Positions 3,905 through 48,037 of a DNA stretch of 64,000 nt are shown here, in pieces. The translations under genes and the position numbers were made by a program. Each line of letters starts with the position of its first letter. Within the stretch, counting starts at the first letter, position 1. Origin of the DNA: Psammoneis japonica (Eukaryota); assembly GCA_008632985.1 (NCBI GenBank), contig QPGO01000085.1, forward strand, positions 186,001 through 250,000. Reading direction: 5' to 3'. A model generated the notes under the pieces. The model was not told where the DNA came from. It did not search any database and worked only from the letters and a program-made list of their open reading frames with translations.

Positions 3905-3984
3905 AATGGTAAATAATCGCTGGGCCTACTCAGTAAAGACTGCTGTTTTTTTTTTAATGAATAAGCTGTCATCTACAGTAGAGT

Positions 3985-4214
3985 TTACCTCAAGAAATGC
4001 CTGTTTGGCTGCTTGATGTTTTCTTTTATATTCAATTCCTCCAACTTCTTGTCCATTTCATCTGCAATCTCTGTGGGGTAAAGTTCCTTTGGAAGTGGTG
4101 TCTAATTGTCACCACCCTGTCCCTTTCTGCATTCCCCATGGATGCTTTCTTTGCATTTTGAAACCTGATCATGTCCAAGCAGCACCCATGATTAAAGAGA
4201 AAATGAGCATGTTC
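3985..4214 (-). pseudogene. 3' remnant of a paralog of the 14242-15441 methyltransferase, truncated by an insertion
   Basis: EHAHFLFNHGCCLDMIR aligns to EHAHLLADHGCYLDTVR; ttcctttggaagtggtgtct is shared. Homology stops abruptly after gagcatgttc (~4214). Confidence 0.85.
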
Positions 4215-7200: not shown

Positions 7201-8203
7201 GAAACACAGACCCCGTGATGTTTCTCAATGATGCTTTGCAGGACTGTGGGAAACAAGGCACTGCCGGCCTTGGGTGGCAGAATGTGTTCGATTTGTGTTC
7301 GGAGGTGGGAAGCAAAGGCATTTTGTTCTTGACCTTCCCATGAAGTTGAGGGCCAACGGGCCAACCTTCTTCTGAAACTTTTGACAAACTTCAGGCTTGT
7401 GGAATTCATTGTCAGACCTGTCCTTTTCATTTTTCGGATTTTTTGGGAAAAGATGTTCCCAAGCCATCAAGGCAAAGGGACATTTGGAGTTTGCGCCGGC
7501 ATCCAGGAGTGAATGGTGATTCATGGTGTTGCCAATCCCTTGTTTGGACAGAAAACCCAGAGAGAATAGAAGAGAACTGCCCACCTTTGAGTTGCCCATC
7601 TTCTTTGCAAGGTTGGTCTCCAAATTTGTCATTTTGCTGGCATGAAGGGTCTGTTTCTGAGCTTTCTGGAGAGAGGATGTGGTCTTGTTGGCAGTTTCTT
7701 GCACATCTTTTTGTTTTGGTTTTTGCAGAAGCCATGCATCAACCAGCAAAACAAAAGCCACATTCTGCAATCTTTGCCAGACATTTGGTTTGGGTTCATG
7801 CCACAAATGGTGCGATGCTTGGAGGCTCCAAGCAGCTCGGCAGTCTTGTGGGAAGGGACTTCATTGTGCTGCTGGAGAAATTCAATGTCCTCTTTTTGAA
7901 TTGGAGAGCAACAGTTCTCAGACACATCATTGGAGGAGTTGGCTTCTTCGTTGGTGGAGGCAGCAGCTGCGGCAGCAGCTGCAGGGTTGTTGGCCGGCGG
8001 AGCAGCTGTGCAGATGGAGAGCCTTGAGGATGCCAAGGGCCAGTCCTGGAGCCTTGCCTGGGTGGCCTGTTGGCAGCAGCTTGGCCTGGTGCTTGAGCAC
8101 CTCCACTGCGACCTCTGCCACAGCCACCTGTGCCGCTGGTGTTGCTGGCATTGTTGCGGCCAGCCACTGGCGGGCTCACCTTCTTCCTTTTTTTGGGCGG
8201 CAT
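4215..8203 (-). pseudogene. Large decayed coding region of unknown origin: N-terminal NLS-like motif and possible UDG-superfamily-like domain
   Basis: Starts MPPKKRKKV at 8203. The 6314-7387 frame contains RGIVLADVSPFPL, KPLNVLLLG and MPHPS. TpA is nearly absent throughout. Confidence 0.4.
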
Positions 8204-9479
8204 GGTCAACAAGAGCACAAAATGGAAAAAAAGGATTGAGTGAAGTCCTGGAAATGGGAGTGCAAAGGCAAAAATGTGAAATTTCCAATCTCAACAAGAA
8301 CACTTTAATGTGATGAAATGAAGCTTGTTGAACAAATTTGAGACATCAATGGCCACATGATTCATCGAGGTTGTTTGAAATCATTCAAACCATCGCATCA
8401 CAATGCAAAGATTGAAAATTTTAAAACCAAATGTTGTTGCTAAAAAAGAGATGCTGGTGGGAATCAACAGATGGTGAGGTTTACAGTTTGGCCAAAAACC
8501 AAAAACACGAATTGTCCCTCCCCCTCAAGACACAGAAAATGCAAACTCAAGGCGCAAGCAATGAGAGAGGCAGTGACAGGCAGCAGCATTGCGGCTGGGA
8601 CAGGATCAAGCACAGGACACAAGGTGAGAAAGACAAAACAAGTGGTGAGTGCATGGAGATGGGGTGCACAATCCAAGCAACTGACACTTGCACACATCTT
8701 TGCACACAGAAATCCAGACAAGGGACGTGGGCAGCAACGGAAGATGGAGCAGCAATGGAAGACGGGGCAGCGGGGATGGGCAACAAGCAAAACCCACTTT
8801 TTGGTGTTTGCATGGTTCAGGCAACACAGAGGGGGGCACTGACAAGCCTTTTTTGTCACATCTGCTGCAGACCCAGCGTTTTTCTTGGCAGGCAGAGGGG
8901 CCGCCATGATGTGACCATGAGAGAGAGGGAGGCTGGCCACCACTGTTTTGTGCTGGTGTGGGGAGCCTCAAAATTTTCCAAACAGAGCAAAGATGGTGTT
9001 CTTCATTTTGCAATTTTCCAAGACCAGGTGGCATGATCACACGTCGATCTCAGTGTTGACACTGCAGTCACATTGAGTCCTGTGTGAGATGCTGCTGGAT
9101 GGAAATCTCTTCGAGGGGTGTCCGTCAGCCAATGGACCATGGAGATTTGAAAAAAATGGTTGCACTTGGCCTGTCCTTCCATGCGTTCACAAAACTTGTG
9201 TGGGATTCTACACACGCAACATTTCGTGGGGCGATGCTGAAATGGCAGTTGCGCCAATCAGGCCTCATTCAAATTTGTGTGAGAGGCCAACACAAATGGC
9301 ACTTTCACGATGATGATGCGGCGGCGGCGTCTTCAGCACGTTCCCGCAGCCATGCCACAGCAAATGCTTCTAGATGTGACAATGTGTTGGAAAGTTTGAA
9401 AGAGATCTGTCTCATTGGTGGCGTCTCTGACGGTGTTGTTTTCAACATAAATTTGTGGACTGGACCACACATTGTGGCA

Positions 9480-10720
9480 GGGCTGAATGTGGCAGCACTG
9501 GTGGCGGCAGGAGCCTTTTGCTGCTTTTGCACTGGGGGTGGCTGGAGCCTGTGCACCACTGTCCTTTTTTATCTGGTGGCAGTTGGCACCCCTGCATGAT
9601 GCTGGTGCTGGTGGTGGTTGGAGCTTTTTTGCTGTTGGCCAGTGGTTGCAGTGGGATCCTGTGTGTCGCTGCCACTGCAGCACTGGTGGCGGTGGGATCC
9701 TGTGTGCTGCTGGCACTGGAGGTGGTTGGAGCCTTTTGCTGCTAGAACTGGTGACAGCAGCAGCCTGTGTGCTGCTGCTGTAGCACTGGTGGCGGTGTGA
9801 GCCTGTGTCCGGCGGTTGGAGCCTGTGCACTGGCAGCCATCGAGGCGTTTGGAGCCTTGTCATGTGATGTCGGTGGGTGCCCCTGCATGCTGTTGGGACT
9901 GGTGGTGGTTGGAGCTTTTTTGCTGCTAGCCAGTGGTTACGGTGGGAGCCTGTGTGTCAAGGCCAGCACTGGTGGCGGTGTGATCCTGTGCAGCACTGGC
10001 ACTGCAGGCGGTTGGAGCCTTTTGCTGCAAGCACTGGCGGGCAGCAGCAGCCTGTGTGCTGCTGCTGTAGCACTGGTGGTGGTGTGAGCCTGAATCCTGT
10101 ATGTTTGCTGGCACCAGCGGCGGTTGGAGCCTGTGTGCAACCATCTTTTTTTATCTGGTGGCGGTTGGCACCCCCGTGTGATGCTGGCACTGGTGGCAGT
10201 GGGAGGCTGCATCCTGCACAGCTGCCAGCACTGGCGGCAGTTGGAGCCTGTGCACCACTGTCCTTTCTATCTGGTGGCAGTGGGTGCCCCTGTATGATGC
10301 TGGCACTGGTGGCAGTGGGAGGCTGCACCCTGCACAGCTGCTGGCGCTTGCGGCGGTTGGAGCCTGTGCACCACTGTCCTTGTCATCTGGTGGCGGTGGG
10401 TGCCACTGGCATTCGAGGCGGTTGGATTCTTTTTGTCTGGTGTTGATGGTGCCCCTGCATGCTTCTGGCAGTGGTGGTGATTGGAGGTGTTTTGCTGCCA
10501 GCAGTGGTGGCAGTGGGAGCCTGTGTGCTGCTGGCAGTGGTGGCGGTGGGAGCCTGTGCACAACTGCTGGCAGTGGTGACGGTGGGCGCCTGTGTGCTGG
10601 TGGCACTGGAGGCGGTTGGAGCCTTTTGCTGTGGGTGCTGGTGGCAGTGGGAGCCTGTGTACTGCTAGCACTGGCAGTGGTTGGAGCCCATGTAACACAC
10701 CAACCGTCGGCGGCGGGATC
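9480..10720 (-). repeat. Degenerate ~33-36 bp coding-like tandem array (Pro-rich HRLPPPPVPAA or APTATSAS frames)
   Basis: Many copies of gcactggtggcggttggagcctgtg variants, plus a higher-order ~100-bp unit at ~10120-10410. Confidence 0.8.
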
Positions 10721-11374: not shown

Positions 11375-12523
11375 ATGCCTTTTATGATGAAGACCAATCA
11401 TCTAACAGCTGCTCTCACTGTCGCCTTATCGGTGTGGTTGCTTTTCACCGTATCGTGGCAGGTTCGGGTGGGGAAGGCGAGTAATATTGGGGTTGGCAGA
11501 GCATCACTGCACGGGCATGTTGTTCCACGAGCACAGTGGCGTAGTCAACAAAGAGACATTCGAGTCAACTATACACCGCAAACGGACAAAACATCGTTTC
11601 CGACAAACGCTCTTCAAGGACGAAACGTCGTTGTCAGGCATCTTGGAAGAGTTGTAAAACGCAGGAACAAAACTACTGTCAACGATCCAAGGCGTGTACT
11701 GGTTCATTTGCATATTGCTAAGAGCGGCGGTACATCGTTGGATGATATTGGGGAAAAACTCGCACATGACTCCGGACGTCGCTATTTTGGAAATTACCAC
11801 TTTGATTGGTCCCGTATTGATGAGATGCCAAACGTCACAAACGTAGACGTTGTCATGTTGTTACGACACCCCGTTTCTCGCGCCGAAAGCCATTTTCATT
11901 ACATTAAAGACCAGGAATGGACAAGGCAGCTTCGAATGTACAACCAAACAATTGAAGAGTATCTTCATGATCCCGAATCATTGTTACAGTGCCTTGATGT
12001 GTGGCAGGATCAACAAGCATCCATTATGTGGTTAACTGGAAACCATATTGCAAGCTGGGTAAGTAGGTCTATATCTCCCAAAGAAAGAGATAAAAGGGAA
12101 CAGCGGGGGTTTGACCACGTCAAGATGTGCCACCTTGCAGCGAAGCGATTAAATCAAACACTGTGGTTTGGTATCTTGGAGGACAGTGAACGCTCTATGG
12201 AACTCTTGCAACATGCTCTCAAGCTCAACTATAGACCACAGCTCCCAAAATCCAATGTTGGGATGAAAAAACCAAAGATTCAGAAGATCTCTGAATGGTC
12301 CAGAAAAGCGCTCGAGTCTCTCATGCCTCAGGATATTTGGCTATACAATTATGCCAAGGCATTGTTTGAGGCGCGATGGACGGAGTACAAGACGGGAGTC
12401 TTTGTAGAACCAGAGTTACCACCCCTGCCAGACTTGCCATGCAGATCGAATCGCTTCGAGCTAAATTGCACAGCGGGTCCACTAGCTGAATCTGGACCCC
12501 TATACTTTCAACGCGTACATTAG
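11375..12523 (+). CDS. Golgi-type sulfotransferase, copy 2 (intact)
   Basis: Uninterrupted ORF; TM anchor LTVALSVWLLFTV; HLHIAKSGGTS; LLRHPVSRAESHF; WFGILED; DIWLYNYA. Confidence 0.88.
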   Translation: MPFMMKTNHLTAALTVALSVWLLFTVSWQVRVGKASNIGVGRASLHGHVVPRAQWRSQQRDIRVNYTPQTDKTSFPTNALQGRNVVVRHLGRVVKRRNKTTVNDPRRVLVHLHIAKSGGTSLDDIGEKLAHDSGRRYFGNYHFDWSRIDEMPNVTNVDVVMLLRHPVSRAESHFHYIKDQEWTRQLRMYNQTIEEYLHDPESLLQCLDVWQDQQASIMWLTGNHIASWVSRSISPKERDKREQRGFDHVKMCHLAAKRLNQTLWFGILEDSERSMELLQHALKLNYRPQLPKSNVGMKKPKIQKISEWSRKALESLMPQDIWLYNYAKALFEARWTEYKTGVFVEPELPPLPDLPCRSNRFELNCTAGPLAESGPLYFQRVH

Positions 12524-12627
12524 AATGGGAAAGATTGCTGTCTAGCTAAGACTACCGTTCCTTTGTCTATAAATATCATATGTCATCGATCTAGACTTCA
12601 CCTCAGAAGAGTCTGTTTGGCTGCGTT

Positions 12628-13084: not shown

Positions 13085-14179
13085 ATGATGCGACATGTTA
13101 CTGCTTTTCGCCTCAAGGCCAACAATGTAACAACAGCTCTCGCAGTCGCCTTGTCGGCGTGGTTTCTTTTCACCGCATCATTGTATGTTTGGGTGGAGAG
13201 GGCGAGTAGCCTTGGGGATGGGAGATCATCGCCGTACGGCTATGTTGTTTCACGAGCGCAGCAGTGGCGTCGCCAAAAAAGAAATGTTCGAGCCAGTTAC
13301 AGTGGACCGCAAACTGACAAGCCATTGCCGTTTAAAGGACAAAGGGTCGTCGGGGATCGTTCATTAGTTCATTTACACATAGGCAAGAGCGGTGGTTCAT
13401 CATTAGATAGAATTGGTTTCAAACTTGCACAAGACTCGGGACGTCGCTATGTGGGTTATCGCCACTTTGATTGGTCCTACATTGACAAGATATCAAACGT
13501 CACGAACGTAGACGTTGTCATGTTCTTGCGACACCCCGTGGCTCGTGCCGAAAGTCACTTTGATTTCGCCAAAGGTGACGACTGGACAAGGAAGCTTCGA
13601 ATGTTCAACCAAACAATCGAAGAGTGCCTTCATGATCCAGAATCGTTGTTGCAATGCCGTGATGTGTGGCAGGATCAACAAGCATCCATCATGTGGTTAA
13701 CTGGAAACCACATCGCCAGCTGGGCAGGCGCACCTCCCGAAGAAAGAAGAAAGGGAACAGCGGGGGCTTGACTACGTCAGATGTGCCACCTTGCGGCAAA
13801 GCGATTAAATGAAACATTTTGGTTTGGCATATTGGAGGACCTTGAACGTTCCATGGAACTCTTACAACATGCCCTCAAGCTCGACTATAGACCTCAGCTC
13901 CCAAAATCCAATGTTGGGATGAAAAACCCAAAGGCTCCGCCGCTCTCCGAATGGTCCAGAAAAGCGCTCGAGTCTCTCATGCCTCAGGATATCTGGCTCT
14001 ATAATTACGCCAAGACATTGTTTGAGGCACGATGGGTTGAATACAAGACTGGAGTCTTTACGGAACCAGAGTTACCACCCCTACCAGACTTGCCATGCAG
14101 ATCGACTCGCTTCGAGCTAAATTGCACGTCGGGTCCTCTAGCTGAGTCTGGGCCCCTCTATTTTCATCTAGTAACTTAG
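13085..14179 (+). CDS. Golgi-type sulfotransferase, copy 3; frame break near 13745-13780
   Basis: Same motifs (HLHIGKSGGSS, FLRHPVARAESHF). The C-terminal ORF 13781-14179 is near-identical to copies 1 and 2. Confidence 0.82.
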
Positions 14180-14241
14180 TATCTGCTACTGCGTAAAGAC
14201 TGCCGGCGTCGTTCTTTATGAATGTCACCTGCGTCTATAGT

Positions 14242-15441
14242 TTACCTCATTTGACGTCTGCCTGCTGGCTTGATGCTTTTCTTAATCATTTCCTCCCATT
14301 TCTTGTCCATATCATCTGTCATCTGTAAAGGGTAAAATTCCTTTGGAAGTGGTGTCTCGTTCTCGCCACCATTTCCTGTTCCGCATTCCTTATTGATAAT
14401 TTCTCTTCGTTCGCGCGTCCTTACTGTATCCAAGTAGCACCCATGATCTGCAAGCAAATGAGCATGTTCCGGGAGAGCAGCAACGACCGGATTGATGAAT
14501 ACTATCATGTTTAGCCAAACATCTGCCCCACGACGAGAGAATCAAACATCCAGTGAGGCGCAATTAGCGGCATGAGGTATCACTCAAAAACGTCGGATTA
14601 GAATACTTACGTTGCGCATTGTACGCTTCCCCGTTCGGGCAGTCAAGTTTCGTTTCGTTTCTTCCATCGCAGTCCGATGAATCTTTTGGGTGAGTTCGTC
14701 TGAGAAACGAAAGCCATACATTTCGAACTTGGTTATCCACCACTCTCTGTCATGCACTTCGACATGATGCCAACCACCCCAATTGCTGTGCGTAACAAAG
14801 AGCAAGGCGGCCTTCCGAAAGGCTGGCAAATAATTTTTATGAAAATTCCTTCCAACGTGTTCCAGAAACTCCACAGACCAAACAGCATCGACGGTTCTAG
14901 GAGGCCACCAGGGGCCTCTTGAAAAATCATGCTCAGTCACAACGTCCTTTACAATGTTCTGCTCAACCGCATCGTGACTCCCTTCTACACATAATGTATC
15001 AACTCCATGCATTTTAAACCACGACGTGGATATGCCGCGACCGCAACCCACGTCGAGGAGTGACTTGACACCAAGCTTGGAAACCATGTACTTCCACGTG
15101 TGTGGAGAAACGCCAAATCCGTCGTACTCTGTAAATCCTCCCAAATGCGCCTTGTCACCGGCTCCGCCGTATATGTTTCGGTTGATCTTTTTGGCTTGGG
15201 CTTTTGTGATTTGAACCGACGGCAGTGCTATTGCGGGGCCTTTTTCATAGTCTAGAGAGTACAAATTTTTGTTGTTTTGATTTACAACCTCCTCGGGATA
15301 GGTAGGTATTGCCATGCTTGTATCGATGGAAACTCGATTGTACTGATATGTCAGCTGGAACACCAGCACATTGGAACACAAAAGCAGCAATAACCACATG
15401 ACACCGCTGCTGCGTCCCGCAACACCCAAAGACGACTTCAT
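14242..15441 (-). CDS. Class I SAM-dependent methyltransferase with N-terminal membrane anchor; intron ~14523-14610
   Basis: SLLDVGCGRG motif I and WSVEFLEHV. The gtaagt donor at 14610 and cag acceptor at 14523 rebuild YNAQHVWLNM. One frameshift near 14640. Confidence 0.82.
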
Positions 15442-29531: not shown

Positions 29532-29546
29532 GGCTTTGTATCAACA

Positions 29547-29816
29547 AAGAAGGCAATTTGCCCGATTTGCTAAGCTTCATTTGAGAGAGCAGAAAGTTGT
29601 CACACGAGTTGATCACTTCAAAGCATGGTAACTCTCTATGGTAGCAGGCAGTTCAGCCAATGAGGTAACTCCACGAAAAATTCAAAAGTACTGGGGCTCT
29701 AGTAAGTAGAGTAGCTCTACTAGCTAGAGTACCACCGAGCTAGCATTCGAACCCTAGGAGGGAACAGGGAGTTTTTTGAGATTCGGAAATAGCAACTCTC
29801 TACTAGCTAGAGCTCT
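29547..29816. repeat. Upstream region of the alpha-kinase gene; unmutated copy A of a ~270-bp direct repeat
   Basis: Aligns with 31684-31955; gttgtcacacgagttgatcacttcaaagcatgg is identical in both. Confidence 0.9.
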
Positions 29817-29879
29817 ATCTTACAAGTAGCTAAGGTAGGAGCTACCAGTTCGGATATTTATCCAACTATTCGATAAATA

Positions 29880-31660
29880 GCAGGCACAACAACGTTGGCC
29901 GAAGTCAGGAGAGGGGCTTTCGCGGTGGCTTCATCAGCGGCCGGCTCAGGCATGGGTTCATCGCTTTCTTGTAGAGAGTGGTGTGAATGCGCGATCCTCG
30001 GAGTGTCATCGTGAGGTCCATGAAATCCACTGTCAGGGATCTTGGACTTGCTACCCACGTGATTTCAAAGTCATTGAGTCTGGAGGTAAAAGCTTCCCAA
30101 CGTGGTGCATCAGTGGCAGGGTCGGCAATGTGCCAGATGCTGAGTGCCTCATCACAATTAATCATTCGCAGTTGACAAGGTTGGGGCCAAACTCCTCCAG
30201 GAGCATGTCCTCATGGATGGCACAATGCAAGGTGGCATGCGGGGGCGCTGGTGGTGTGCCCATGGTGGTCCCGTTGCGTTGGTGCCAGGTGGTGCCACTG
30301 AAGGTGAAGACATTGTTCTTCACAACAATTCAGAGGGCTTCAATCAGTGCTTCAATTGGCAAATTTTTGTGGACTGTTCATGTCATCAGAGGCAAAGTGC
30401 AATCTCTCAAAGTGCTCTGGTGGTGGGTGTGTTCAAATGACAAGCCTCAGCATCAGATGTGAACAGGAGGCAATTTGGTGGCATTTGCAGTTGGACCAGT
30501 TCATTCTTGAGGTCCAGGGAGCTCTTGAAATGAGACCATTGTTTGCGAGCAACTTGTTGGAGCTGGTCATCTGCCCAAACCCCCAGGCCATGCAGCAGGC
30601 CACCGCTTGTAGAGATGATCAGTTGGGGTTGCAGCGGCGGGGATTTGTGAACCTTCAAGGTCATGCAGAAGACAGAAAAGGGGGTTTTGTTGGCGTCAGT
30701 GAGGTTTTTCAGAAACTCATGTTCCATGGTGGTAAGATCTCCTTTGCATTTGTTGATCCAATTGCCAATGAGTTTTTTTAAGTCAGCGCTCTTGTGCAGC
30801 GGCTTCGAATGTGCTTGAGTGTCGGCATGTGGTGTTGTTGCCAAGGTGGTCACAAAAAGCCATTTTGATGTGCTCCATTGTTTCAACAATGGTTGGTCCC
30901 AGGTTTTTGTCACACTGGGCAATTACGAAGTCATCCTGTTTGCACAGGCAGGAAAGAGCACGTCGTTGGCACAAGGCAGCAGGTTGGTTCTTCCTGGTTT
31001 TTTGGCAAAGTGCTGTGCAAGTCTGGCTTTGAAGTTGGTGCATCTGCACTTGACAGCATCAGAGAGCTTCCAGGGTGGTGGTGTCCAGGAAGACTTGGCA
31101 TGCATTGTTGGGTTGCAGTCTCCGCCATCGTCAATGGCGGCATTGGCAAAGCAGCCTCACTCATCTGGAGACCTTTGCTTGAATTGTCCAAGTGAGTTCT
31201 CTTGCATCTTGATGGACTTGCCACTGCTGGCACAGCATGGTGTTGGGACAAATTTTGGGCTGAGGCTGAGCAGTGGTTGGAGGTTGCGTGGTGGCTGAAG
31301 TGCAGCAGTGTGCAATCATGGAAAGCAAGATGATGTGGCCTGCTCCTGAAGCAATGTCATGCTGGCGTGTCACCAAGGTGGGTGAACAAGGCAAGGCATT
31401 GTGTCGCAGTGCTCTTGAGGGATCAGCAGCAACAAATCTGCAGGTTCGGCAGATGTGCTGACAGACGATGAGCTCTGGCACCTGCTCTGATTGTCAGTTG
31501 AGTGCTGCTTCCTCTTTTCTGTGATTGCTGCTTCAATTTTGACGAGCGGTGATGCTTGCTTTTGGAGGTGCTGGTGGTGTGTTTGTTGGCATCATTGGCT
31601 TTGTGGTGTGGTTAAGGGTGGGGTTTCTTCAGGCGATCCGATGTGACACTTTTGCCTTTT
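29880..31660 (-). mobile_element. Decayed Penelope-like retroelement (RT; GIY-YIG part not seen)
   Basis: CDKNLGP, FCMTLKVHKSPPLQPQLIIS, LFTSDAEA, GTTMGTPPAP, VDFMDLTM..IHTTLYKKAMN are Penelope RT motifs; adjacent hammerhead motif. Confidence 0.85.
29897..29942 (-). ncRNA. Minimal type I hammerhead ribozyme motif, Penelope-associated
   Basis: Minus strand reads ggccg CTGATGA a gc cacc gc GAAA gcc..gac TT cggcc. It has both core boxes, a 5-bp stem I, a 2-bp stem II and a weak stem III. Confidence 0.6.
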
Positions 31661-31683
31661 TTGTGATGCGACACCCATGAACG

Positions 31684-31955
31684 AAGAAGGCGATTTGCCC
31701 GAGCTTGCAAACTTCATCAGACAGCAGAATGTTGTCACACGAGTTGATCACTTCAAAGCATGGCAACTCTCTGCTTGCAGTGGCAAGCAATTCTCAGCCA
31801 ATGAGGCAGCTCCAAAAAAATTCAAAAGCACTGGGTCTGGCAAGCAGAGTGGCTTTGCCAGCTCTGGCTGGAGCACCGCCGAGCTGGCATTTGAAGCTCA
31901 GAGGAACAGAGTTTTTTGAGATTTGAAACAGCAACTCTCCGCTAGCCAGAGCTCT
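31684..31955. repeat. Hypermutated copy B of the alpha-kinase upstream region
   Basis: Same sequence as 29547-29816 with nearly every TA changed to TG or CA. Confidence 0.9.
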
Positions 31956-32330
31956 CTCTCTCTCTCTCTCCCTCTCTAGTAGAGGGTTACTCTAGAGCTA
32001 GAGTAGAGAGTGGCAGAGAGAGATGAACACGGATGGACGACTCTCGAATCAATCTTGAATGATCTTGAATTTTTTGGCGCAGTCGTACAAAAAACGCATG
32101 GAATCAGCAAAATTTTTAATTCTATTCCTCATGTTCATATGTCAAAAATGTCAACGCGGATAATGATAATATTCACACATTTATGTTATGATCGAAAAAT
32201 TTAGTATCAGATTTCCTGTTTACTATTTTTCCCTCCAATGAGGTGCAAGCCACAAGACCGAAACCGCTTACGTGTAACCAATAACCTCCAGAAGTCCTAT
32301 TCGACCATTATTCGACCGGGATAGTAGACA

Positions 32331-36421: not shown

Positions 36422-37009
36422 CCAGAGAGGTCATTCTGCATAAACTGTTTTCTTGAGGAAGCTGCTGCCTGCTGTCCACGCCAACCTTGTGAAAACTCGG
36501 CAACGAGCAGCGCCCATCCTAGCAGGGACCTACTAGACGACCTCCGTTGTCGCTTTCACAGAAACGAATTTCAAAAATATCCTTGCATAGTATAAATTCT
36601 TCCGTGTGTATAACATTTCTATTACTGTCCCTGTTGGTCCCTGCGTCCGCGGAACACCGTAATTCCATACAGTAGAGATGATCAGAAAGAAGGTACTTCG
36701 TATTCCTCGCTCGAAAGCATTGGGTACCGATAGAGACTGGGAGCAGGGAGTAGGCCTCTCTACTCTCTAGCTAGCTAGAGAGTAGAGTGGGTAGAAAGGA
36801 GATTACACTGTCTACCTGCGGTGCGATATCTGAGATCGATGGCGAGTGCGGCGAGTGGCGGGCGATGAGAAGACTCACGTAGAATCCTACGACGTTCAGT
36901 ACTGCTGACTGGTGATATCTTTTGGATTCTTTCCCTCCACCGTTCTTTCGATTCTCATTTTTGTGCTTTGTTGAAAGAGAGCAACTCTTGCAGTATCTAT
37001 AACATCACC

Positions 37010-38655
37010 ATGTCGTTTGCTGGAATGCACAGTCCTCATGTGAGCATGAGCAGTGATTTCAGTTCGAAGCTGGGGCTCGCGGAGATGCTTCAAGAGTTCG
37101 AGAAGGAAGAAAGGAGGAGGCGATCTGTGGAATCAACCCCTCGCAACGACGAAAACACTCCTCTCGTCAGTTCTGGTTCCAAAGACGAAGTGCGTCTAAA
37201 CTCGACGCTTCTTCTCACAATTTTGGTAGTGACAGTTGGTTCCTCTCTTCAATTTGGTTATGGTACAGGCGTGATGAACAATGCGGAAGCATTCATCGTT
37301 GCAGATTTTCAAAGTCGCGGCAAGGAGTACAGCCTCGTTGCCTGGGGCACAACCGTCTCTTGCTATGGCATCGGCGGACTTATTGGCTCTGTGCTGGGTC
37401 CCAAAGTGATTGGTCGATTCTGTGGGCGACGAGCCACTCTTTTGGTGCAAAACGTGTTTTTAGTGGCAAGCTCTTGCTTTATGGCTTTTGCTCCAGAGTG
37501 GTGGTACCAAGCTATCGGCCGTGTGCTTGTTGGTATCGTTGCAGGTGTGGCTACTGCGGTTGTACCAACCTATCTAGCTGAAATCAGCCCGGTTCCGCTT
37601 CGTGGGGCAGTTGGAACCATGCACCAGTTGGGGATAACAGTTGGGATTCTGGTCTCCCAAATGCTCTCCACGCCTAGCTTGAATCTGTTGGGATCAACAG
37701 ACAAGTGGAGGTGGCTATTTTTGGTCCCTGTGCTTTGCGGCCTAGTGGAAGTGGTCATTTTACCATTTCTCCCGGAGTCACCAAGCTACCTGTATTCGAA
37801 ACAAGGGAAGGACGCTGCAAGAGAAGCCTTGGTGAGATTGCAAAGCGAAGACGTGGCTGACGAGTATCTGAGCTACATCAAGGAGGAAATCAGCTCGAAT
37901 ACAAACTCAAACAGTGAAATGAGTGTTCTGGAACTATTCCAGGACCGGTCTCTTCGAAAGCAGCTCATTGTCGGTATTACCGTACAGCTAATGATGCAGT
38001 TCTCAGGCATCGATGCGGTTTTCTACTATTCCACCAAGGTGTTTTACCAAGCTAACGTGTCAGATCCAGAGCTTGCCACGACTGTACTTGGGCTTATCAA
38101 TGTCATTGTGACAATCTTTGCTGTCAAATACATGGACACCGCCGGTCGCAAGACACTCTTGACGTACTCCTGGATAGGAATGATGACAAGCTATGTACTC
38201 TTGTGTGGGAGCTTTGTGTTCCACCCGTACCTCCATGGAATGGATCAACTATCCGTCATCGCAATGACAGGTGTGATTATAGCGTTCGCATTCGGGCCTG
38301 GTTGTATTGCGTGGTTTATTATTGCCGAGATTTTTCCGTCTCCTGCTCGCGATTCAGCAATGGCAGGTAAGAACCAAAATAATGCTGATCCGTGTGATAC
38401 AGCACATGCTGACTTGCATCTAAATCTCGTTTGCTGTTTTACTCTCGGACAGTTGGGATCTTTATCAATTGGGTGGCAAATTGGCTTGTTGCGTTTACCT
38501 TTCCGATTCTGTTGGAGTATACACAACCGTATACCTTCCTCGTGTTTGTGGCGACAACCACGTTCTTCTTGTACTTTACCCGGTCATTTGTGCCCGAAAC
38601 CAAAGGACTTACGGTTGCACAGGTGACTGAGGAGTTTGCCAAGATTCCATTGTAA
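37010..38655 (+). CDS. MFS sugar porter (GLUT/SLC2A-like); intron 38367-38452
   Basis: GSSLQFGYGTGVMN, GRR, YLAEISP..LRG, PESP, MQFSGIDAVFYYS, GPG.IAW, VPETKG. Confidence 0.95.
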
Positions 38656-38829
38656 CCGGGAACATCCAACCTAGTCCTTTCCAGCCAACGCGGGGAGATT
38701 TCATTGGTCTGTCAATGCATTGTCAAGTGTTTATCTAGCTATTAACGATCACTGTCGATTTCGACTACAAATGAAAATCATTCTCTGTAATTCCAGGTTG
38801 ACTTTTAGACCTAATTCCATCATTAGCAA

Positions 38830-41000
38830 CTCACACCCCAATGGGGAGAGTGATTTTTGTGATGTGCCTTTCCTGTCAGAAGTGCTCGAGCGAATGCATT
38901 CAAATTGTCAACCAAGGCCACCATTGCCTCTTGACAAGACAGACTTGCAGCAGCTTTCAAGGATGGTGGGTGGGCCTCCGAATTGAAAGAAGGGTGGCAG
39001 TCGACAAAAGCCAAAGGGAGGAACCTCGTGACAAGTCTTTGGAAATTACACCAACTGCCATACCACCTCGCTCAGGGCAATCCACCAGCTGACAAGGATC
39101 CATCAATGGTGTGGCACAGGGGCACATCTGACTTGTTCGGGATCCAATCATCTGTCCCGCATTTGTGGCTTGTTCCACCTTCATCAAGAAGCAGCTGGTT
39201 GTCCAATGGTTGCCAGACAGCAAGTTTGTTGAACTGGGAGAATGCAAACAACCCCAACATGCAGAAGGTGGAGAAGGCGATGCTTGGCAGCAAAGGCAAT
39301 CGTCCAATGTCGCTTGAGAGGGGAGCAGCAAGTCACAGGTGATCCTTGCCACACACACCACAACAAATTGAACAGAATGACAAAGTAGAAGAAAAGTGAG
39401 TTGTCTCTCTCTCTGCAGAGCACTCAACAATGACAACACTCTGTGCCTTTTGCAGTCACAGCATGTGCTTGCAAGGAGCACAAGAGAGGCAGCAGCAGCA
39501 GGGAGGGCAAGAGAACTCATTTGGGCTGCATTGACACGCAAGAGAAACTGCAACATCCTCAACAAACTCTGCCTGCATCAAGGAAGCATGATGTCAGTTT
39601 GGCTCACATGCAAAGTGGTGCTCCTGTTGACCACATTTCTGGGTTAGACACTGTGTGAATGAGACCACAACACAAACCCACATGGCCAGCTCTTGACTTC
39701 AACAGTGATGGCATTCTGCAGCATTGTGGCATTCTGCGCCATTGTGCAGCTGCAGCACATGCTTGCAAAGAGCATGAAAGAGGCAGCAGGAGGGCAAAAC
39801 CATTCATTTGCGGGCTGCATCAACACACGCAATTTGCAATGCCCTCAACACAAGCTTCCTGCATCAAGGAAGCATGTTGGTCTGGCTCACATGCAAAGTG
39901 GTCCTCCTGTTGATTGCTGCATTCCCAGGTTAGATGTTCCTGTGCAAATGAGATGCCACATCAACCCTTCTGCACAATGTTGTTTCTTTTTGCTCACTTT
40001 TGCTGATGCTGCAGACCACCACAAATTAGTTTGAGGGTGATGTGAGCTCTGCTCCTTTGATCTGGCATTGCAACACAACTGCAAAACATGACCTCTGCAG
40101 AGTGATGCTCCTTGTCAGCTGTGCCTGCTTGTTGCTGGTGGCTTCGCATGCCTTCAAATTGCAATGAGGGCATTGAACAACACACATGTTGGGTCACATT
40201 TGGAGGCAGTTGGGTGGGTGGGTGTCTTTTGTTTGTGTGTGGTGATGGCATTGCACCCCTCACTGACAAGAACCTGCATGTGGAGGAGGAATGAAAGTTG
40301 CTGCCATTGAGGGCTGTGGTCTCACCAAGTGCCAGAAAATGGAGATGCTGCCAAAAAGCAAGAAAGAGAATCTCTGCTTTGGTGCTTTGCACAAGAAACT
40401 TTGCTTGAGATTGAGTCTCTCTTGAGTTGTTGAGGGTTGTGTGCCAGCACTGGCCTGGGGCAACCCCAGCCACCAGAAGATGAGGAGCTCCAACACGTGT
40501 TGTTCCTGGGTGGAGAAGCTTCTCACAGGCATTGGCAAGGAGCTCAAAAGCTGGTGCCTTCTTGCTGGAGCTGTCACCTCATTGGTGGGAAGCTCTCTGC
40601 ACTCTAACAACCTCTCTGTGCCCCAATGATGGGGCTGTTGCAGGTGTGGCAATGTCAAGATGTTGGAGCATCCAGAACAAGCAGGAAACACAAGAAACCC
40701 AGACAAGAAATTGTTGAACAGAAGATGCTCTGGCTGCTGATGTGGTGGATTTTGTGACACTTTTGAAACAAAAACACATTCACTGCCAATCTCACTGACC
40801 TTCTTTCATCTCACTCTTTGGAGTGAATCATCTGGCTCACATGAGTTGCATTGTGGCATCAATGGGTGCCCATTGCATTGTAAGATTGAAGTTTGTTGAG
40901 GACTTCCAGGCAAACCATGGCTGCCACAGCAGCCAGAACAAGTGCAACAAGCAGTGCAGGAAACCTCACAGGGGGGTTCCTTTCAGCAACATTGACTCTT
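38830..41000 (+). pseudogene. Decayed TpA-depleted sequence with internal ~295-bp-period duplication (39460-39935); 3' part paralogous to 46550-46895
   Basis: gcatcaaggaagcatg..ggctcacatgcaaagtggt occurs twice; gaacaagcaggaaacacaagaaaccc is shared with ~46565. Confidence 0.55.
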
Positions 41001-41149
41001 GTTGATTTGACATTCACTCAAAGAGTGGACAGGCACTGCATTTGAAGCACACAGGTGCTGACCTCCATGCAATCATCTGAGATGGGAAACCTGCATCATG
41101 AGTGGCAGGAGAGGAGGCAGAACAAGTGCCAAAGGCTGAGGATGTGACT

Positions 41150-44100
41150 GAGGCAGAAGAAGTCTTTCCATGACAAGAACACCAAGACCAACCCAAACAA
41201 TGAAGTTTCATCCATCATCAATGAACAGCAACTTGCACAATGCAGCATGTGAAGACATCAAGAGAAGATCATCAATCATGATGTGCAGAAAATGTGATCA
41301 GGGTGCACATCTGGCAAGGTCTCCAGAAGACATGAAGTGCAAGATGTTTGATGATGTGAAACCCACATTGGGAACACCAAAGGTGGTGATGCCAGAGGCA
41401 ACTGCCTCAGTCTGCTGGGACATGGCAGACAAGAGATCATGAGAAGAAAAAGAATTGGAGCATGAGTGCAAGGCTGCACTTCATGACTGCAACAAAAAGT
41501 GAGGAAGCTTGAGGAAAACAAGACTGCAGCATTTGCAGCAATCCCAGATGATTGCTGTGCCAAGCTCATGAATCAGAGAGTGCTGGCTGATCCCAAATGT
41601 GAGAGCATCAGAGATGACCCAATCAAGCTGTTGAAGCTGATCCAGTCACTTGTGCTCAACTCCATGAGAGGGCGACACCCATTCTGTGCACTTGCCAAGT
41701 CTCTCAAGCACGTGTCACTTGGACATGCGAGAACAAGAGGATGAGTCACTGAATGACCAGCTGTCAAGATTTAAGAATCAATGAGATGCTGCAAGTGAGG
41801 GATTTGAAGTCATTTTTGTGATTCAGTCTGGTGAAGAAGAGCCTGTCCATCATCCCTGAAGATGTGGATGGAATGGCAGCCATTTGGGGTCCACCAACAG
41901 ATGCATTGAAGGGCACGACCGAGTGCACACACCATTCCCATGAAAGGAATGTTGCTGAGGCAACTCCACCTGAAATCTGTGAGAAGCAGAGAGAAGGTGT
42001 GACCCTCTGCATTGATGTTGTGGAAGCATGTGCTGTGTTGAGCTGCTGCTGTGTTGAGCTGCTGCTGCACGTGGTTGACAAGATGATCAAGTGTTGATTG
42101 AGTGTGAGATTGAGGTCTAAGAAGCATGATCATGTTTGTGAAGCCTTGGACATGATGATTCTCTGACAGTGCAACATGGCTCTGTTCAAGATTGACATTG
42201 TCTCAAGTGTGATCCCAAGTTCAAGGACATGCTGGCAGAAGTTGTGGATGGCATGAATCTAGAGCTCATGTCTGTGAATGCCAAGGACCATGTTCCAGAA
42301 GTCAAGTGGAGCATCCAAACCATCAATGAGCAAACCAGAGCCACTGCACATCACATCACATGCCATGCAAGACAGTGCCCAAGTTGATGTGCAAGCAAGC
42401 CGTGACAAAGAACACTGTCATGTCAAACATGCACCCACAAAAGGAGGAAGGAATTTCTGACTCTTGCAGTCCACACACCATTCTTGTGCAATGAAGAAAC
42501 CTTGACTGACTGCAACAAACATTTTCAGCTTGAGTTGGGGAACTTGTTGTTTCCCACATTGAGAATGAGAAGACAAACACTGTGGAAGCATGTGGCATTG
42601 ACAGCATCCACCTCCTGCGACCATGTTTTGATTCAGCGCTGAAGGGTGGACACCATGCCATGAACCTGCACATGGGCAAGCTTTCAAATCCCTGTAAGTG
42701 CACCTCCATTCTCTTGACTGACATGCATGCCACAGCTGTTGAGGACGTGGCCATTGGGGACAAGGCATCAAGCAACTCAAATCACAGGAAAATTTGGAGA
42801 TGATTTGCATGTTGTGCAGATTTGACTGTGGGAGCACACAATGACAAAACCAAAAGTGACCGCAAAAGCAATGACAAAAGCAAAGAAAGCAAAACAATGT
42901 AAACCACACAACCAAGTCAGAAGATGAAGACCATCAAGATGAACCTGTCTCTTGTGATGAACATGATGCAATCAAGCAAATGACATGCCAGCTGATGAAA
43001 GGTTCAGATTCCTCAATCAACAACACAAAGCTCAAGAAAAGAGCAAGAGGTTGAAGAAGACCCAGAAGACAATGAACACTGTGACAGTGAAGAGTCCAAA
43101 GAGGATGAAGAATCCCAGGAAGACATGAGATGGGGAGGTGAGTGATTGGAGGAAGAAGCAAGAGCTGTGCCAAGCAGAGCTGCAAGAAGCGTGAAGCAAG
43201 CATTCAAGGCATCCTTCAACATGAAATCACATGAACACCAAGACAAGAAAGTTTGATTTGCAGGAGTCGCAGATGCTGGAAAAGCAGCAAAGAAGCAACA
43301 AAAGCTCAAACACTGCCATTGTCTGTGTGCTGACGTGAGCCCCAATCCAGAGAATGACATTGAATGTGAAGCAGAGACAGCAATGGCACTTGCATGCTTC
43401 ATCTGTGAGATTGATGACCCACTCAGAAGTGGAGAGGGTGCATGTTTTGCCTGGCAACATTTGCTCTGTGAAGGCCTCAAAGCATTTGGCCAGAAGGAGT
43501 GTGATGCCTCAGAGAAAGAAATCAGACAGTTGCACAACCAAGTGTGCTTTGCACCAGCAGTGTCAGTCAAGGACATGACTCCAACTGAAAGGACCAAGGC
43601 CATGGTGGCCTTGATGTTCCTCACCAAGAAACGAGATGGTTGCATGAAAAGGCGAGTGGTCTGCAGAGTGGCAAACTGACCCAAGAATGACAAAGATGAG
43701 TCCACCAGCCCCACTGCATCCCTTGAGGGGACATTGACAATGGCCCAATCTTTGACACTCATGAAGTGTGACATGAAATGAGTGCTGACATTCCCAATGC
43801 ATTTGTGCAGACAATGACACCAGAGCCTGGAGAAGGCAAAGACCAGATTGTGATGAAGATTTCAGGAGCGATGGTGGACATGCTGGTGAGCATCAATCCC
43901 AACCTGTGCAGAGGCCTTGTGTTCTCCCAGAGAAAGGCAAGAGAGTCCTTTGTGTCCAAGTTGTCAGAGCCATCTGCGGCACACTGATCGTGGCTCAGTC
44001 ATGGTGCAAACAATTTTGCAAAGACTTGGAGAAGACAGGGTTTAAGTTCAACCCACACAATCCATGCATTGCTGGTCAAACAGTCAATGGCAAGCAGCAC

Positions 44101-45250
44101 ATGATTTGATTTCATGTGGACAACCTGTTGTCAAGCCACAAGAACCCAAAAGAAAAAGACAAATTTTTGAGCTGGCTGAACAAGATGCATGGAAGCTGCA
44201 GTGAAGTCATCGCCACAAGAGGGAAGAGACACAACTGTCTTGGCATGACCTTGGACTTCAGTCAGAAGGGAAAAGTGAAAATTGACATGGCAGACTGCAT
44301 TTGTAAGATGGCCAATCAGTTTTTCTGGAAAAGCCAAAGAGTGCTCCAGATTTTGCCATGACACCAGCTGGAGAGACCAAAAGATGTTTGACACCTGTGG
44401 AACAAGATTGTCAGATGAGAAGGCTCAGACCTTCCACATGTGGGTGGCCAAGAAAGAACTGTTTGTGTCCAAGAATGGCCAAATGGATGTGCACCCCGCT
44501 GTCACCATGTCATGAACGTGTGCAAGAGCTCCCACCAACAAGGATTGGGGGAATCGGAAGCTGGTCCATTGTCTCAAGCACATGAACCGGACAAGAAAGG
44601 AAGTCACTGCATCAATCATGAAGGACCTCCAAGTTGTCAAGTGGTGTGTGGAATCATCATTTGCAGTGCACCCCAATTTCAACAGCCCCACCAGAGGAAT
44701 CACAACAACAGGCAATGGAGCAGTGCTGGCCATCTTGAAGCACCAGAAGCTCAGCACCTGCAGCAGCTCAGAAAAGCTGAACTTGTTGGAGTTGATGATG
44801 CCATGACTGTGATGCTGCGGACAAAGCTGTTCATGGAACACCAGGGGCATCCAATCAACAAAAATGTTCTGCAACACCAGGACAACAAGAGTGTGATGCT
44901 GCTGGAAACCAATGGGGCGCAAGAGTGCCAGCAAGTGATTGCAAGCACTCAACATGTGGCAACTCACAACAAGAGTGCCGGCAAGTGATTGCAAGCACTC
45001 AACATGCAGCATTCCTTTGTCGCAATCAGATCAAGAAGGGCAACTTGCAAGTGCAGTGTTGTCCTGCCAACAACATGTCAGGAGACTTCATGACAAAGCC
45101 GCTGCAAGGCAAGAAGTTTTGAAAGTTTAAATGAGCCGTCATGGGCTGTCAACTTCAAGTGCAACAGGTGCAAGTCCTTTTCATTGGGATGCCAGACAAG
45201 AATTCTGACACATGTGGGTAAAAGATTCCTGACACCAGACAGGAAGGGCA
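41150..45250 (+). mobile_element. Decayed Ty1/copia LTR retrotransposon (CoDi-like): gag, integrase, RT, RNase H
   Basis: DDPIKLLKLIQ (gag); AAIWGP, VTLCIDV, DHVPEV (integrase); LMFLTKKRDG, SADIPNAFVQT, VVRAICG, FNPHNPC, HVDNLL (RT); SSFAVHP, AELVGVDDA, QDNKS, DFMTKPLQGKKF (RNase H), in copia order. Confidence 0.92.
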
Positions 45251-45299
45251 CCAAACTGAAGGGTTCAACAGCAACCACACAATCTGTGGCTCTGCGGTT

Positions 45300-46980
45300 G
45301 ATTGATGAAGATGATTGACAACTGTGACATCAGAAGAGTTGCACGAGGTGACTGACAACTGCAAGTTGTTCAAACTGGATGACAGTGTGATGACATTGGC
45401 ACCCAGCAGCAGCCACAGGACTGCTGTCAGAAGAGGTTTCACATGGCCTTGAGAAGCTGCAAGAACATGAGAGATTGGCATGGTGCAACAAGGAATGTGC
45501 TCAAGGATTGCATGAGAGAGCAATGCATGGGGATTGACACTCCACCCCAGTCCTTGCATTTGTTGCAATGCTGTTGATGCATGTGAAATCAGCAGATCAC
45601 ACAAGAGAATGAGGGTCAAGGATCAAATCCAGTGTTCCCAACATGGGGCTGGAAAGACAAGGGCCTGTGGAGAGCCCTGTGGTTGTAGAGGCACCATGAA
45701 ATGAAGGAGCAGAAGAACACCTTGATGGAGATGACAAACACAAGTTGTGAAGTGCATCAACACATGTCACCACCAATGCACCTGTGTTTTTTGTCCTCAG
45801 CAACAAAGGGGTTGCACTCCAAACATTGGAACATGCCACCAAAGCACACAAGATCAAAGAGCTTTGGCAAGTCCTGGGTGCTGTTCCTGGAGACAGAACA
45901 AGCACACCTGCATGAGAGATTGACCTCCACTGCCAGGTGAAGAATGTCTGTCACCCAAATGGGAGGCTGGAGCAAGCAAAAAGCAGCAGCTTTGCCTCAA
46001 CAAGACTGACATCAACAAACTGTGTTGCAAGTTGTTCCCACCTTTGGCATGAGCAAGAATGGGATTTGTGGTTCCCTCATGAAGCTCCAGGAGCAAGACC
46101 CCATCAATGTGTGAGATTGATGCAGACTCATGACAGCTGCCAAAGGGGCAGAGTGTGCAATGCCAGGAATTTGGCAGCATCTTTCTGCCATGAGACTCAA
46201 TGACCACTCAAACTTGAGAGGTGGCACTGTGCCAATGTGGCATTCCTGGATCTGTCTCCAGAGGCAATCAACAGTTGGGTCACAAACCGGGTTGGACATC
46301 CAGAAAATGAGAACGAGAAAGAGAAGTCTTGCCATGCTTGTGCAGAGCACTTTGTGGAGAATGTTCATGGAGTTACACGTGCGTTTGATGATTTGATTGA
46401 TTGCAGCTGTGGTGGCAGCAAGTGCGTGTGTTTGCATGTTTGTCAATTGTGGGACGTTGAGAGCACCCTGAAGCAAGTGGCGCTGACACCGAGAGTCCTG
46501 AGCAGACTGTCAAGCCACAAGATGAACATTGTTGCAAGCATCAGGAGTGTGTTGGAGCATCTGGAACAAGCAGGAAACACAAGAAACCCGGGCGCAGAAT
46601 TGTTGAAGAGAGTGCACTCCGGCTGCTGACGTGGTGGGTGCATCTTGTTGTGACACTTTGGAAACAAAAACACACTCATCACCAAACTCACCAACCTTTT
46701 TTTATCTCACTCTTTGAAGTGAATCATCTGGTTTGTGTGAATTGTGTTGTGGCATCAGTTGGCACCCATCACGTCACAAGATCTGAGTTTGTGTTGATGA
46801 CTTCCAGGCAAACCACACACAGAGCCTCATGTGGCAGCCAGGACAAGTGCAACGAGCAGTGCAGGAAACCTTGTGGGATTCCCTTTCAGTGACATTGTCT
46901 TGTCGGTTCAACACAAGAGGCCAGGCAACAATTTTTTAATGGGGTTGGCATGCCGCAGGTGTGTTGGAGTGTCGGCAGCG
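45300..46980 (+). pseudogene. Decayed TpA-depleted coding-like sequence, paralog of 40670-40990
   Basis: LEHLEQAGNTRNP and VNHLVCVNCVVASVG..DKCNEQCRKPCGIPF align to LEHPEQAGNTRNP and NHLAHMSCIVASMG..NKCNKQCRKPHRGVPF. Confidence 0.55.
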
Positions 46981-47137
46981 ACCCCAAAATCAACCTGCTC
47001 TACCTCCCGCCAGAGACGCCATACGACGGTCAGAACGCGGTACAGAATTTTTCTCAACGCTCGCGAGGTTGCAAAAGTCGCCGATGGGCCGATGGAGCGA
47101 TGAGTTCACTCGCAGTTTCAAGTTCAAGTTCGCAGAG

Positions 47138-48037
47138 ATGAAACTATGTACCATGATGGCAACTCCAAACGTCGCTTCATCGCTTCCAAAGGATAAGAGG
47201 GTCGAACGAGATGATGAGGAGCCCTTGTTTGTCACCACTTGGAAGGTTCAGGTCGGGTGGCTTGTAATCTTTCTCGCCTTGGTGGCTCTTTTCCGGATTC
47301 CCGTGGTGCAAGAGTTGATGGATGCTTTCTTGGGATTCATTCTCACTTTCCTGGCACCCGCCGTTCCTTCTTCTGCCAGCATGGCAACAAAAGGATCCGA
47401 AACATACGAACCCCTTTCTGTCGTTTGCTGGGTCGCTCATGTGCCCACCATGATTTTTGGCAACGAACTGTTTCGAGTGGCCCTCCACGATCCGAAGAGT
47501 GCCGTGACACGACGCTTGGGATTGGGTTTTTTCCTGAATTTTCTTCAGGGATGGATCATTATGGTGGGCCACAGCCTTGTGAACGTTCACGCCCCCCTGG
47601 AGGAGAAACTCATCCTTTTGGGTCTGGTTTTGGCCGCCACGAGCGTTTTTTCCATGGGCATATGGGGATTCTTTCCCGACATTAGTGCCATTTACGTCTA
47701 CCCCCTGATCTTTGCCGCTGTCTTGTCGGAAAATGTTACCTACAAGAATCTCTATGGTCGAATCTTCAGTTCCATGGCTCTTGTGGCCGTCCTGTATCGT
47801 CCCGAGATCCACCTCCTTTTGAAGCTTGGATACTTAATGTGCGCCATCATGGCCGTTGTCCTACCGCTCCTACCGTGGCCCCACGGCACCAACGTACACC
47901 ACACGTTGGATGCTCTGTACTTGAGCGTGGCTACGGCTGTGCTCATGACGGGTGCCATTTGTCAAGCCAAGGGAGTTACCGTTCGCGATGTGGTACTTAT
48001 CGTCCCGGGCAAGAAAAGGCAGCTTAGCACCAGGTGA
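47138..48037 (+). CDS. Multi-pass membrane protein of unknown function
   Basis: Long clean ORF with many hydrophobic helices and normal Tyr/TA content; start codon uncertain. Confidence 0.75.
   Translation: MKLCTMMATPNVASSLPKDKRVERDDEEPLFVTTWKVQVGWLVIFLALVALFRIPVVQELMDAFLGFILTFLAPAVPSSASMATKGSETYEPLSVVCWVAHVPTMIFGNELFRVALHDPKSAVTRRLGLGFFLNFLQGWIIMVGHSLVNVHAPLEEKLILLGLVLAATSVFSMGIWGFFPDISAIYVYPLIFAAVLSENVTYKNLYGRIFSSMALVAVLYRPEIHLLLKLGYLMCAIMAVVLPLLPWPHGTNVHHTLDALYLSVATAVLMTGAICQAKGVTVRDVVLIVPGKKRQLSTR

Follow-up and report, generated by a model that had tools for sequence, protein, structure and literature searches.

Why does one 8-kb block of a diatom genome contain almost no TpA? The question is raised by a 64 000-nt stretch of Psammoneis japonica (GenBank assembly GCA_008632985.1, contig QPGO01000085.1, positions 186 001–250 000 of the forward strand), called here the window; all positions below are counted from its first letter. 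A block at 38825–46936 (D4) fills the space between two genes and holds the remains of a Ty1/copia retrotransposon. We observed in D4 a post-integration, DNA-level, strand-symmetric and block-confined change of TpA and CpG into TpG and CpA, and we describe it as such with high confidence. The likely cause is a targeted, host-driven hypermutation in place, in which a deaminase would have acted on the integrated copia element and on neighbouring DNA in silenced chromatin, much as proposed for the alga Bigelowiella natans.

The depletion is seen at once in 1-kb windows: the observed-to-expected ratio (o/e) of TpA was 0.00–0.08 at ∼39000–46500 as compared with 0.5–0.8 in the remaining window, with GC content of ∼0.48. 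The block as delimited by dinucleotide counts, TA positions and a hidden Markov model (HMM) contains 20 TA (o/e 0.04) and 64 CG (o/e 0.14) at GC content of 0.48, and it is enriched in TG (919; o/e 1.98) and CA (959; o/e 1.79). Given the background rates, one would predict 355 TA and 439 CG in the same interval (Poisson P = 3e-122 and P = 4e-111, respectively). The TpA-depleted domain of ∼8 kb in the original prediction is, therefore, real. The concurrent depletion of CpG had been missed there.

Gains and losses balance. In the block ∼312 of ∼332 expected TA and ∼387 of ∼451 expected CG are missing, and the surplus of TG and CA (∼716) matches the number of lost TA and CG (∼699), with the remaining 12 dinucleotides and the GC content at background values. 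Thus, the composition is what one would expect of a sequence in which all TA and CG were exchanged for TG or CA with nothing else altered. Stop trinucleotides carry the same mark: counted on both strands, 468 of 496 in the block are TGA (TAA 19, TAG 9), while in normal DNA of the same length TGA makes up 300 of 591. With nearly all stops being TGA, long spurious open reading frames (ORFs) are to be expected on both strands.

The edges of the block are as sharp as had been claimed for the 3′-end of the upstream GLUT-like gene and for position ∼46990. On the left, TA is normally spaced up to 38824, with subsequent TA at 39047, 39061 and 39386; on the right, TA is back at 46937, 47001 and 47022. 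The two-state HMM, run over the window in 50-bp bins, placed the block at 38851–47000. The block starts 169 bp 3′ of the stop codon of the sugar-transporter gene and ends 23 bp past the 3′ long terminal repeat (LTR) of the copia element.

Judged by homology and repeat structure, the content of the block is a degenerate Ty1/copia element of ∼6.3 kb with an LTR pair. The 5′ LTR (40616–41013, plus strand) matches the 3′ LTR (46510–46914, plus strand) as a direct repeat; the two are 76–79% identical in plain comparison and 90% identical in purine/pyrimidine coding. Between them homology reveals a frameshifted, stop-ridden remnant of the polyprotein (41795–45146, plus strand); we assigned to it an upstream part (41795–42896), a reverse transcriptase (RT) part (∼43374–44349) and an RNase H-like part (∼44291–45146), all on the plus strand. 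Phmmer search with the frame 43789–44985 (X at stops) produced 2887 matches (best E = 1.4e-48, 50% identity), and tblastn matches of 152 relatives were confined to 41795–45146 of the plus strand. The Pfam family RVT_2 was present in all eight relatives tested (E from 9e-20 to 1.5e-6; six of the eight above the curated cutoff); the window copy itself had no direct Pfam match in any frame. By homology to these RVT_2-bearing proteins, the Ty1/copia layout is present, an LTR pair around RVT_2-type RT followed by RNase H. On visual inspection of the LTR borders, neither a primer-binding site nor a target-site duplication could be made out.

The depletion had also been said to extend for ∼2 kb into non-copia DNA on each side. 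This is correct for the left side, where 1.8 kb (38825–40615) is non-copia DNA; the ‘flank’ on the right side, however, turned out to be the 3′ part of the element together with its LTR. The left part (TA o/e 0.06, CG o/e 0.15) belongs to no recognisable family by composition, k-mer depth and searches: no likeness was found elsewhere in the window, even with purine/pyrimidine coding, nor any Pfam or copia match. It is single copy (k = 31, 90% likeness), being contained in one 9096-bp contig (31734 to 40827) of unique depth 61 assembled from X1, a DNA run of the same sample which holds 89% of sampled 31-mers. Self-comparison detected within the left part a two-copy tandem duplication (39419–39967, plus strand; copies 39419–39679 and 39710–39967), 73% identical plainly and 86% identical in purine/pyrimidine coding.

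Was TpA lost from the block, or had the block been poor in TpA all along? We compared RT motifs of the window copy with those of 20 relatives. Tyrosine makes up 0% of the window RT versus 5.4% in the relatives, and all eight conserved Tyr columns are changed (to Cys in five, to His in two and to Gln in one). Two of the motif changes noticed earlier, AIYG to AICG (AIYG or ALYG in relatives) and NPYDPC to NPHNPC, were recovered in this comparison; the third one, WYV to WCV, was not, as in four relatives the residue there is W, S or H rather than Y. In addition, other copies in the source genome retain TA at 44121 and 42890, where the window has CA. A native composition, with the element family or horizontally acquired DNA being poor in TpA and CpG from the outset, would explain the composition itself and nothing more; it is contradicted by the relatives, which keep Tyr and TA, by the same-genome copies, and by discordances in the LTRs and in the duplication (see below), which require TA or CG ancestors. 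We give it practically no probability.

The direction of change can be read within the window as well. A 283-bp repeat has one twin (29540–29820) outside and another one (31677–31959) inside a second TpA-depleted block, D3; TA o/e is 1.12 in the former and 0.06 in the latter. The 18 TA of the unmutated twin are replaced by CA (10) or TG (8) in the D3 twin, and the GC content is 0.43 in the unmutated twin versus 0.50 in the mutated one. The twins are either LTRs of one small element with one end in the block, or an old and a young insertion of one family. In the X1 run, the 29540–29880 repeat is high-copy (summed depth ∼595) and unmutated; the 31677–31959 twin is low-copy. The high-copy repeat being intact, not all repeats are affected, while multi-copy copia and the single-copy flank are both mutated.

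One more block, D2, has a left edge that extends ∼110 bp into sequence whose paralogue, at 13341 and onward, retains TA and CG. Up to ∼4100 both dinucleotides are kept; from 4104 on, TG and CA replace TA and CG of the paralogue. These changes at the edge are, apparently, the result of mutation leaking into neighbouring DNA. The sequence in question is one of three paralogous copies (3057–4214, 11681–12624 and 13362–14469), 79–84% identical, with a 235-aa ORF of no Pfam family; it is the copy 3057–4214 that adjoins D2 and has TG and CA for TA and CG in its final ∼110 bp.

At what time and on which substrate did the changes happen? The LTR pair has 75 differences in 355 aligned positions; 61 are transitions, with 39 of these in columns with pyrimidine–purine steps in both LTRs (YR/YR columns). 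At 15 sites of these 355 bp, CA in one LTR is paired with TG in the other. The copies of the left-flank tandem duplication have 12 such CA-versus-TG sites in 247 aligned bp, as compared with 1 site in 941 bp in control paralogues of similar divergence from normal DNA. To produce a CA/TG pair from a CA ancestor two adjacent transitions are needed; the discordance, therefore, points to a TA or CG ancestor that was struck separately in each LTR. Since LTRs are identical at integration, the changes must have been independent, on DNA and post-integration. The LTR discordance thus provides a proof of action on integrated DNA from sequence only.

With 15 discordant sites, a similar number of concordant derived sites is to be expected, and the sum is close to the TA plus CG density of normal DNA. 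We infer that conversion of TA and CG was near complete, essentially all of it having occurred after integration and separately in each LTR.

The outcomes are strand-symmetric (TG to CA, 919:959, p = 0.37), thus both strands were affected equally. There are no strand runs in the element (runs test z = −0.77); a weak strand clustering was seen in the left flank (z = −2.78). The comparison of TG with CA had been suggested as a check on the original prediction; a strand asymmetry confined to element bodies, which would have spoken against it, was not seen. These results bear on the idea that ADAR-like A-to-I editing of RNA, or RT error, was fixed on reverse transcription. Retroelements do pass through RNA, and ADAR prefers U 5′ to the edited A, as stated in a preprint (bioRxiv 10.64898/2026.01.13.699255); still, the LTRs were mutated independently, CA and TG outcomes are equal, CpG was lost too, and the signature is present in single-copy non-element DNA and in the flank duplication. 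The combination of LTR discordance, symmetry and affected non-element DNA excludes RNA editing and RT error for practical purposes, and we consider such an origin extremely improbable. The claim that the pattern is not an error of one element’s RT is upheld by discordances in LTRs and duplication, by symmetry and by the affected single-copy DNA.

Losses of TpA and CpG coincide in the block, yet not in full. In the outer 500–650 bp of D4, CG o/e is 0.34 and 0.41 with TA o/e already at 0.05–0.07. The HMM borders of TA and CG are unlike in all four depleted blocks of the window, and the interval 800–2000 has 0 TA in 1200 bp yet 46 CG (o/e 0.55). Judging from these patterns, and from two metagenome loci (L006 and L007, see below) that are depleted in TA with CG near normal, TpA loss and CpG loss are two separable processes. 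The CpG part probably reflects a distinct and ordinary process in which methylated cytosine decays; transposable elements of diatoms are known to be CpG-methylated, in Phaeodactylum via DNMT5a (PMC9998398). Decay of 5-methylcytosine turns CpG into TpG or CpA, a change that makes up one half of the signature and is seen in the block; on the other hand, it cannot account for the loss of TpA, which is the larger and sharper effect. Separation of the two losses bears on the targeting of two silencing-linked processes.

Could the signature be an artefact of sequencing or assembly, with modified DNA miscalled so that TA and CG are read as TG or CA? Exactly two palindromic dinucleotides are involved, those favoured by DNA-modifying enzymes, the edges are very sharp, and the run in which the sequence is found was made from the same sample. 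The block, nevertheless, is reproduced by X1 contigs built from exact 31-mers at a depth of ∼61, which run across its left edge and differ from the window 9 times in 9096 bases; of the 22 differences listed for X1 within depleted blocks, 10 are TA or CG versus TG or CA. The protein is also degraded by frameshifts and other substitutions, and the LTRs differ by indels and at non-YR sites as well. Finally, relatives free of Tyr exist in independent short-read metagenome assemblies. An artefact is, therefore, very improbable.

These relatives came from the 150 best database RT relatives (P0121–P0270), in which Tyr content is distributed bimodally: 24 of them have <1% Tyr (P0129, P0133, P0137 and 21 others), being rich in Cys and His. 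Ten of the Tyr-free relatives were looked up, and all ten were from metagenome assemblies. Hypermutated copia ORFs are, then, present as predicted proteins in public metagenome catalogues. At the DNA level, we searched for metagenome loci with a six-sequence alignment as a query, retaining the best 80 of 569 as ranked by similarity to the query. Related copia elements of low TA content (o/e 0.04–0.45, with CG o/e 0.7–1.0) were found in two loci, L006 (1–11300) and L007 (whole length); in L006 TA becomes normal again near 11300, and L007, a short-read metagenome contig, has TA o/e of 0.04–0.24. No relative was found in the viral contigs searched.

What process could remove TpA in such a way? 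The closest known case is B. natans (Mettrop et al., bioRxiv 10.64898/2026.01.13.699255). There, mutation-accumulation lines gained 231 mutations in an integrated nucleocytoplasmic large DNA virus (NCLDV) and virophage; of these, 230 were A>G or T>C changes, always within TpA. Mutation ran at ∼1000-fold over background, in some lines only; as the enzyme, the authors suggest an ADAT2-like DNA adenine deaminase. In the B. natans genome, clusters of windows poor in TpA and rich in CpA and TpG are enriched in reverse-transcriptase and DDE domains. The two systems are alike in the change of TpA to TpG or CpA on either strand, in strand symmetry and in being confined to blocks with the remainder normal. 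They differ in host and target: a chlorarachniophyte (rhizarian) with a giant-virus insert there, a diatom (stramenopile) with an LTR retrotransposon and neighbouring DNA here. The B. natans process acts on single-copy integrated foreign DNA; in our case the left flank is single copy at k = 31, though it may be an ancient repeat, and copia is multi-copy. The timing was established by mutation-accumulation lines in B. natans and by the LTR discordance here.

We propose the following course of events. An old, dead Ty1/copia element, along with 1.8 kb of single-copy DNA between two diatom genes, would have been hypermutated after integration by two processes: (a) TpA to TpG or CpA, i.e. A-to-G on either strand, ∼94% complete, and (b) CpG to TpG or CpA by 5-methylcytosine decay, ∼86% complete overall but less so in the outer ∼500 bp. 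Process (a) would be of the same kind as the targeted TpA hypermutation of integrated viruses in B. natans, and the likeliest chemistry would be adenine deamination at TpA on DNA. As TpA is palindromic, with one adenine per strand, a single event destroys the site, hence 1:1 outcomes with no CpG created. The target was presumably silenced, methylated chromatin, which would explain why CpG and TpA losses coincide without having identical borders; a host process at the level of chromatin domains is plausible. The effect would be destruction of TAA and TAG stops, Tyr codons and TA-rich signals, leaving the element hidden from Pfam with GC content unchanged. We have moderate confidence, by analogy, that the chemistry is that of a deaminase and that the process is homologous with the one in B. 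natans.

A targeted process could also work through thymine, either modified (e.g. a 5-hydroxymethyluracil-like base pairing with G) or subject to error-prone repair at TpA. A T>C change at TpA is formally the same as A>G on the opposite strand, and the palindromic TpA and CpG resemble sites of DNA-modifying enzymes; the sequence does not discriminate this route from adenine deamination. We know of no such thymine modification in diatoms, and regard the route as rather unlikely.

Better known systems fit less well. In fungal repeat-induced point mutation (RIP), CpA is changed to TpA and the DNA becomes AT-rich. Like the process in D4, RIP acts on DNA and inactivates mobile elements where they lie, by transitions alone and at particular dinucleotides, and it leaks to some extent into adjacent unique sequence; its direction, however, is opposite, as here TpA is removed and GC content stays at 0.48. 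With TpA lost rather than created and GC content unchanged, we rejected RIP. RID, the enzyme of RIP, has a relative in diatom DNMT4 (PMC9998398). ADAR and APOBEC also inactivate retroelements by deamination, and ADAR shares a preference for U before the edited A (as stated in the B. natans preprint); these enzymes, though, act on RNA or single-stranded cDNA, with strand-asymmetric changes made before integration and shared by both LTRs. The changes in the block, in contrast, are symmetric, post-integration and reach non-element DNA.

Several observations weigh against targeted hypermutation of the B. natans kind. Depletion of TA was found in only 2 of 79 metagenome loci, the other 77 (from the best 80 of 569) having normal TA; ranking by similarity to the query disfavours mutated copies in such a set. 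X1 may be the assembly’s own data and is thus not independent of the sample. As far as the accessible part of the preprint goes, the NCLDV insert in B. natans is unsaturated (rho TpA 0.45), unlike D4 with o/e of 0.04, and no CpG component is reported there, while CpG is lost here too. The right edge coincides with the LTR end, so that targeting at the level of the element may be possible there; spread beyond elements is seen at the left flank and at the D2 edge only, and the left flank may itself be a repeat so old that it has diverged past recognition. Lastly, ∼36 of the 75 LTR differences are outside YR/YR columns, a divergence of ∼10%, which makes the element old. By simple arithmetic, an element of such age would need an excess of tens of fold per site, not the 1000-fold of B. 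natans.

The last point favours the main rival, slow passive decay without any targeting, TpA and CpG being the two steps that mutate most readily where DNA is unrepaired, methylated and late-replicating. Decay of CpG in methylated transposons is ordinary, and diatom transposable elements are CpG-methylated (PMC9998398). Nevertheless, TpA has been removed more fully than CpG, as in the interval 800–2000; the edges are sharp within ∼25–200 bp, with DNA outside the four blocks keeping TA o/e of ∼0.6; and no generic mutational bias is known that would remove TpA specifically, with A/T changing to G/C. In B. natans, TpA mutation is episodic and locus-restricted, according to the preprint. We consider passive decay unlikely, though it is the alternative to be taken most seriously.

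If targeted hypermutation is indeed at work, diatoms would be, with moderate confidence and by analogy, a second lineage for TpA hypermutation, known so far from one 2026 preprint on one rhizarian alga. For diatoms, TpA hypermutation did not turn up in our literature searches or term look-ups (PMC2806351, bioRxiv 10.1101/2025.10.24.684338, both covered in part). One could speculate, tentatively, that diatoms and chlorarachniophytes, possibly stramenopiles, alveolates and rhizarians (SAR) at large, share a DNA adenine-editing genome defence, a ‘reverse RIP’, that erases TpA in silenced mobile DNA, and with it TAA and TAG stops, Tyr codons and TA-rich promoter signals at constant GC content, alongside cytosine methylation but independently of it; we would hold this possible rather than probable. 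A second lineage with saturated, sharp blocks would make feasible a comparative search for families of deaminases or DNA-modifying enzymes.

There would also be consequences for annotation. Under such a defence, much of the intergenic DNA of diatoms that cannot be annotated (29% of the window) would be mobile DNA made unrecognisable. As none of the four blocks has a direct Pfam match, the transposon content of diatoms may be underestimated. Comparison in purine/pyrimidine coding, or screens for Tyr-free ORFs, recover such blocks.

The HMM delimited the four blocks at 1–2000 (D1), 4201–10650 (D2), 30101–31900 (D3) and 38851–47000 (D4), the 29% of the window mentioned above. D1 is cut by the window start, and the first 2011 bases of the window have a single TA; an inverted repeat (palindrome) of ∼250 nt, at 2016–2267, is located where TpA turns normal at the right edge of D1. 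D2 (TA o/e 0.05, CG o/e 0.26) includes a GC-rich tandem array, and D3 (TA o/e 0.06) holds the mutated repeat twin. It had been claimed that three unrelated retroelement classes in the window share one spectrum; the spectrum is indeed common to four unrelated blocks, but copia alone was identified as a retroelement. The four blocks have no mutual sequence similarity, even in purine/pyrimidine coding, where a reversed-sequence control reached up to 150 bits. Neither the 113 ORFs nor six-frame read-throughs of the four blocks gave a credible Pfam family; sub-threshold matches (e.g. Toxin_22, 18.7 bits) were under the cut-off and were taken as noise. For the longest D2 ORF (6314–7387, minus strand), a search of proteins of 196–625 aa gave no homologue (E ≤ 0.001).

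The array at the right end of D2 (9481–10700) consists of nested tandem repeats with periods of ∼32, 41, 116 and 291 nt and GC content of 0.58–0.61. In this array CA o/e is 2.2–2.5 and the ratio of TG and CA is strongly asymmetric (222 against 80).

The genes next to D4 have normal composition. The upstream neighbour (36869–38655, plus strand), identified by homologues and a spliced contig, codes for a sugar porter (GLUT-like MFS); among named proteins it is closest to those of diatoms (Nitzschia, Seminavis, Epithemia; ≤78% identity), the source diatom’s own proteins being absent from the database. It has an 86-nt GT..AG intron (38364–38449), and the spliced coding sequence, ending at 38655, aligns with C-termini of homologues. 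The intron is backed by a contig of another run, X2, which carries the flag ‘DNA?’: the contig 36975–38662 is joined across the intron, thus X2 behaves like a transcriptome. X2 has no contig in 39144–46751 or in D3, which in itself is no evidence of silence. The downstream neighbour found by ORF scan (47084–48037, plus strand) has candidate starts at 47084 and 47138 and no Pfam family; near its start, at 47142, an X2 contig begins.

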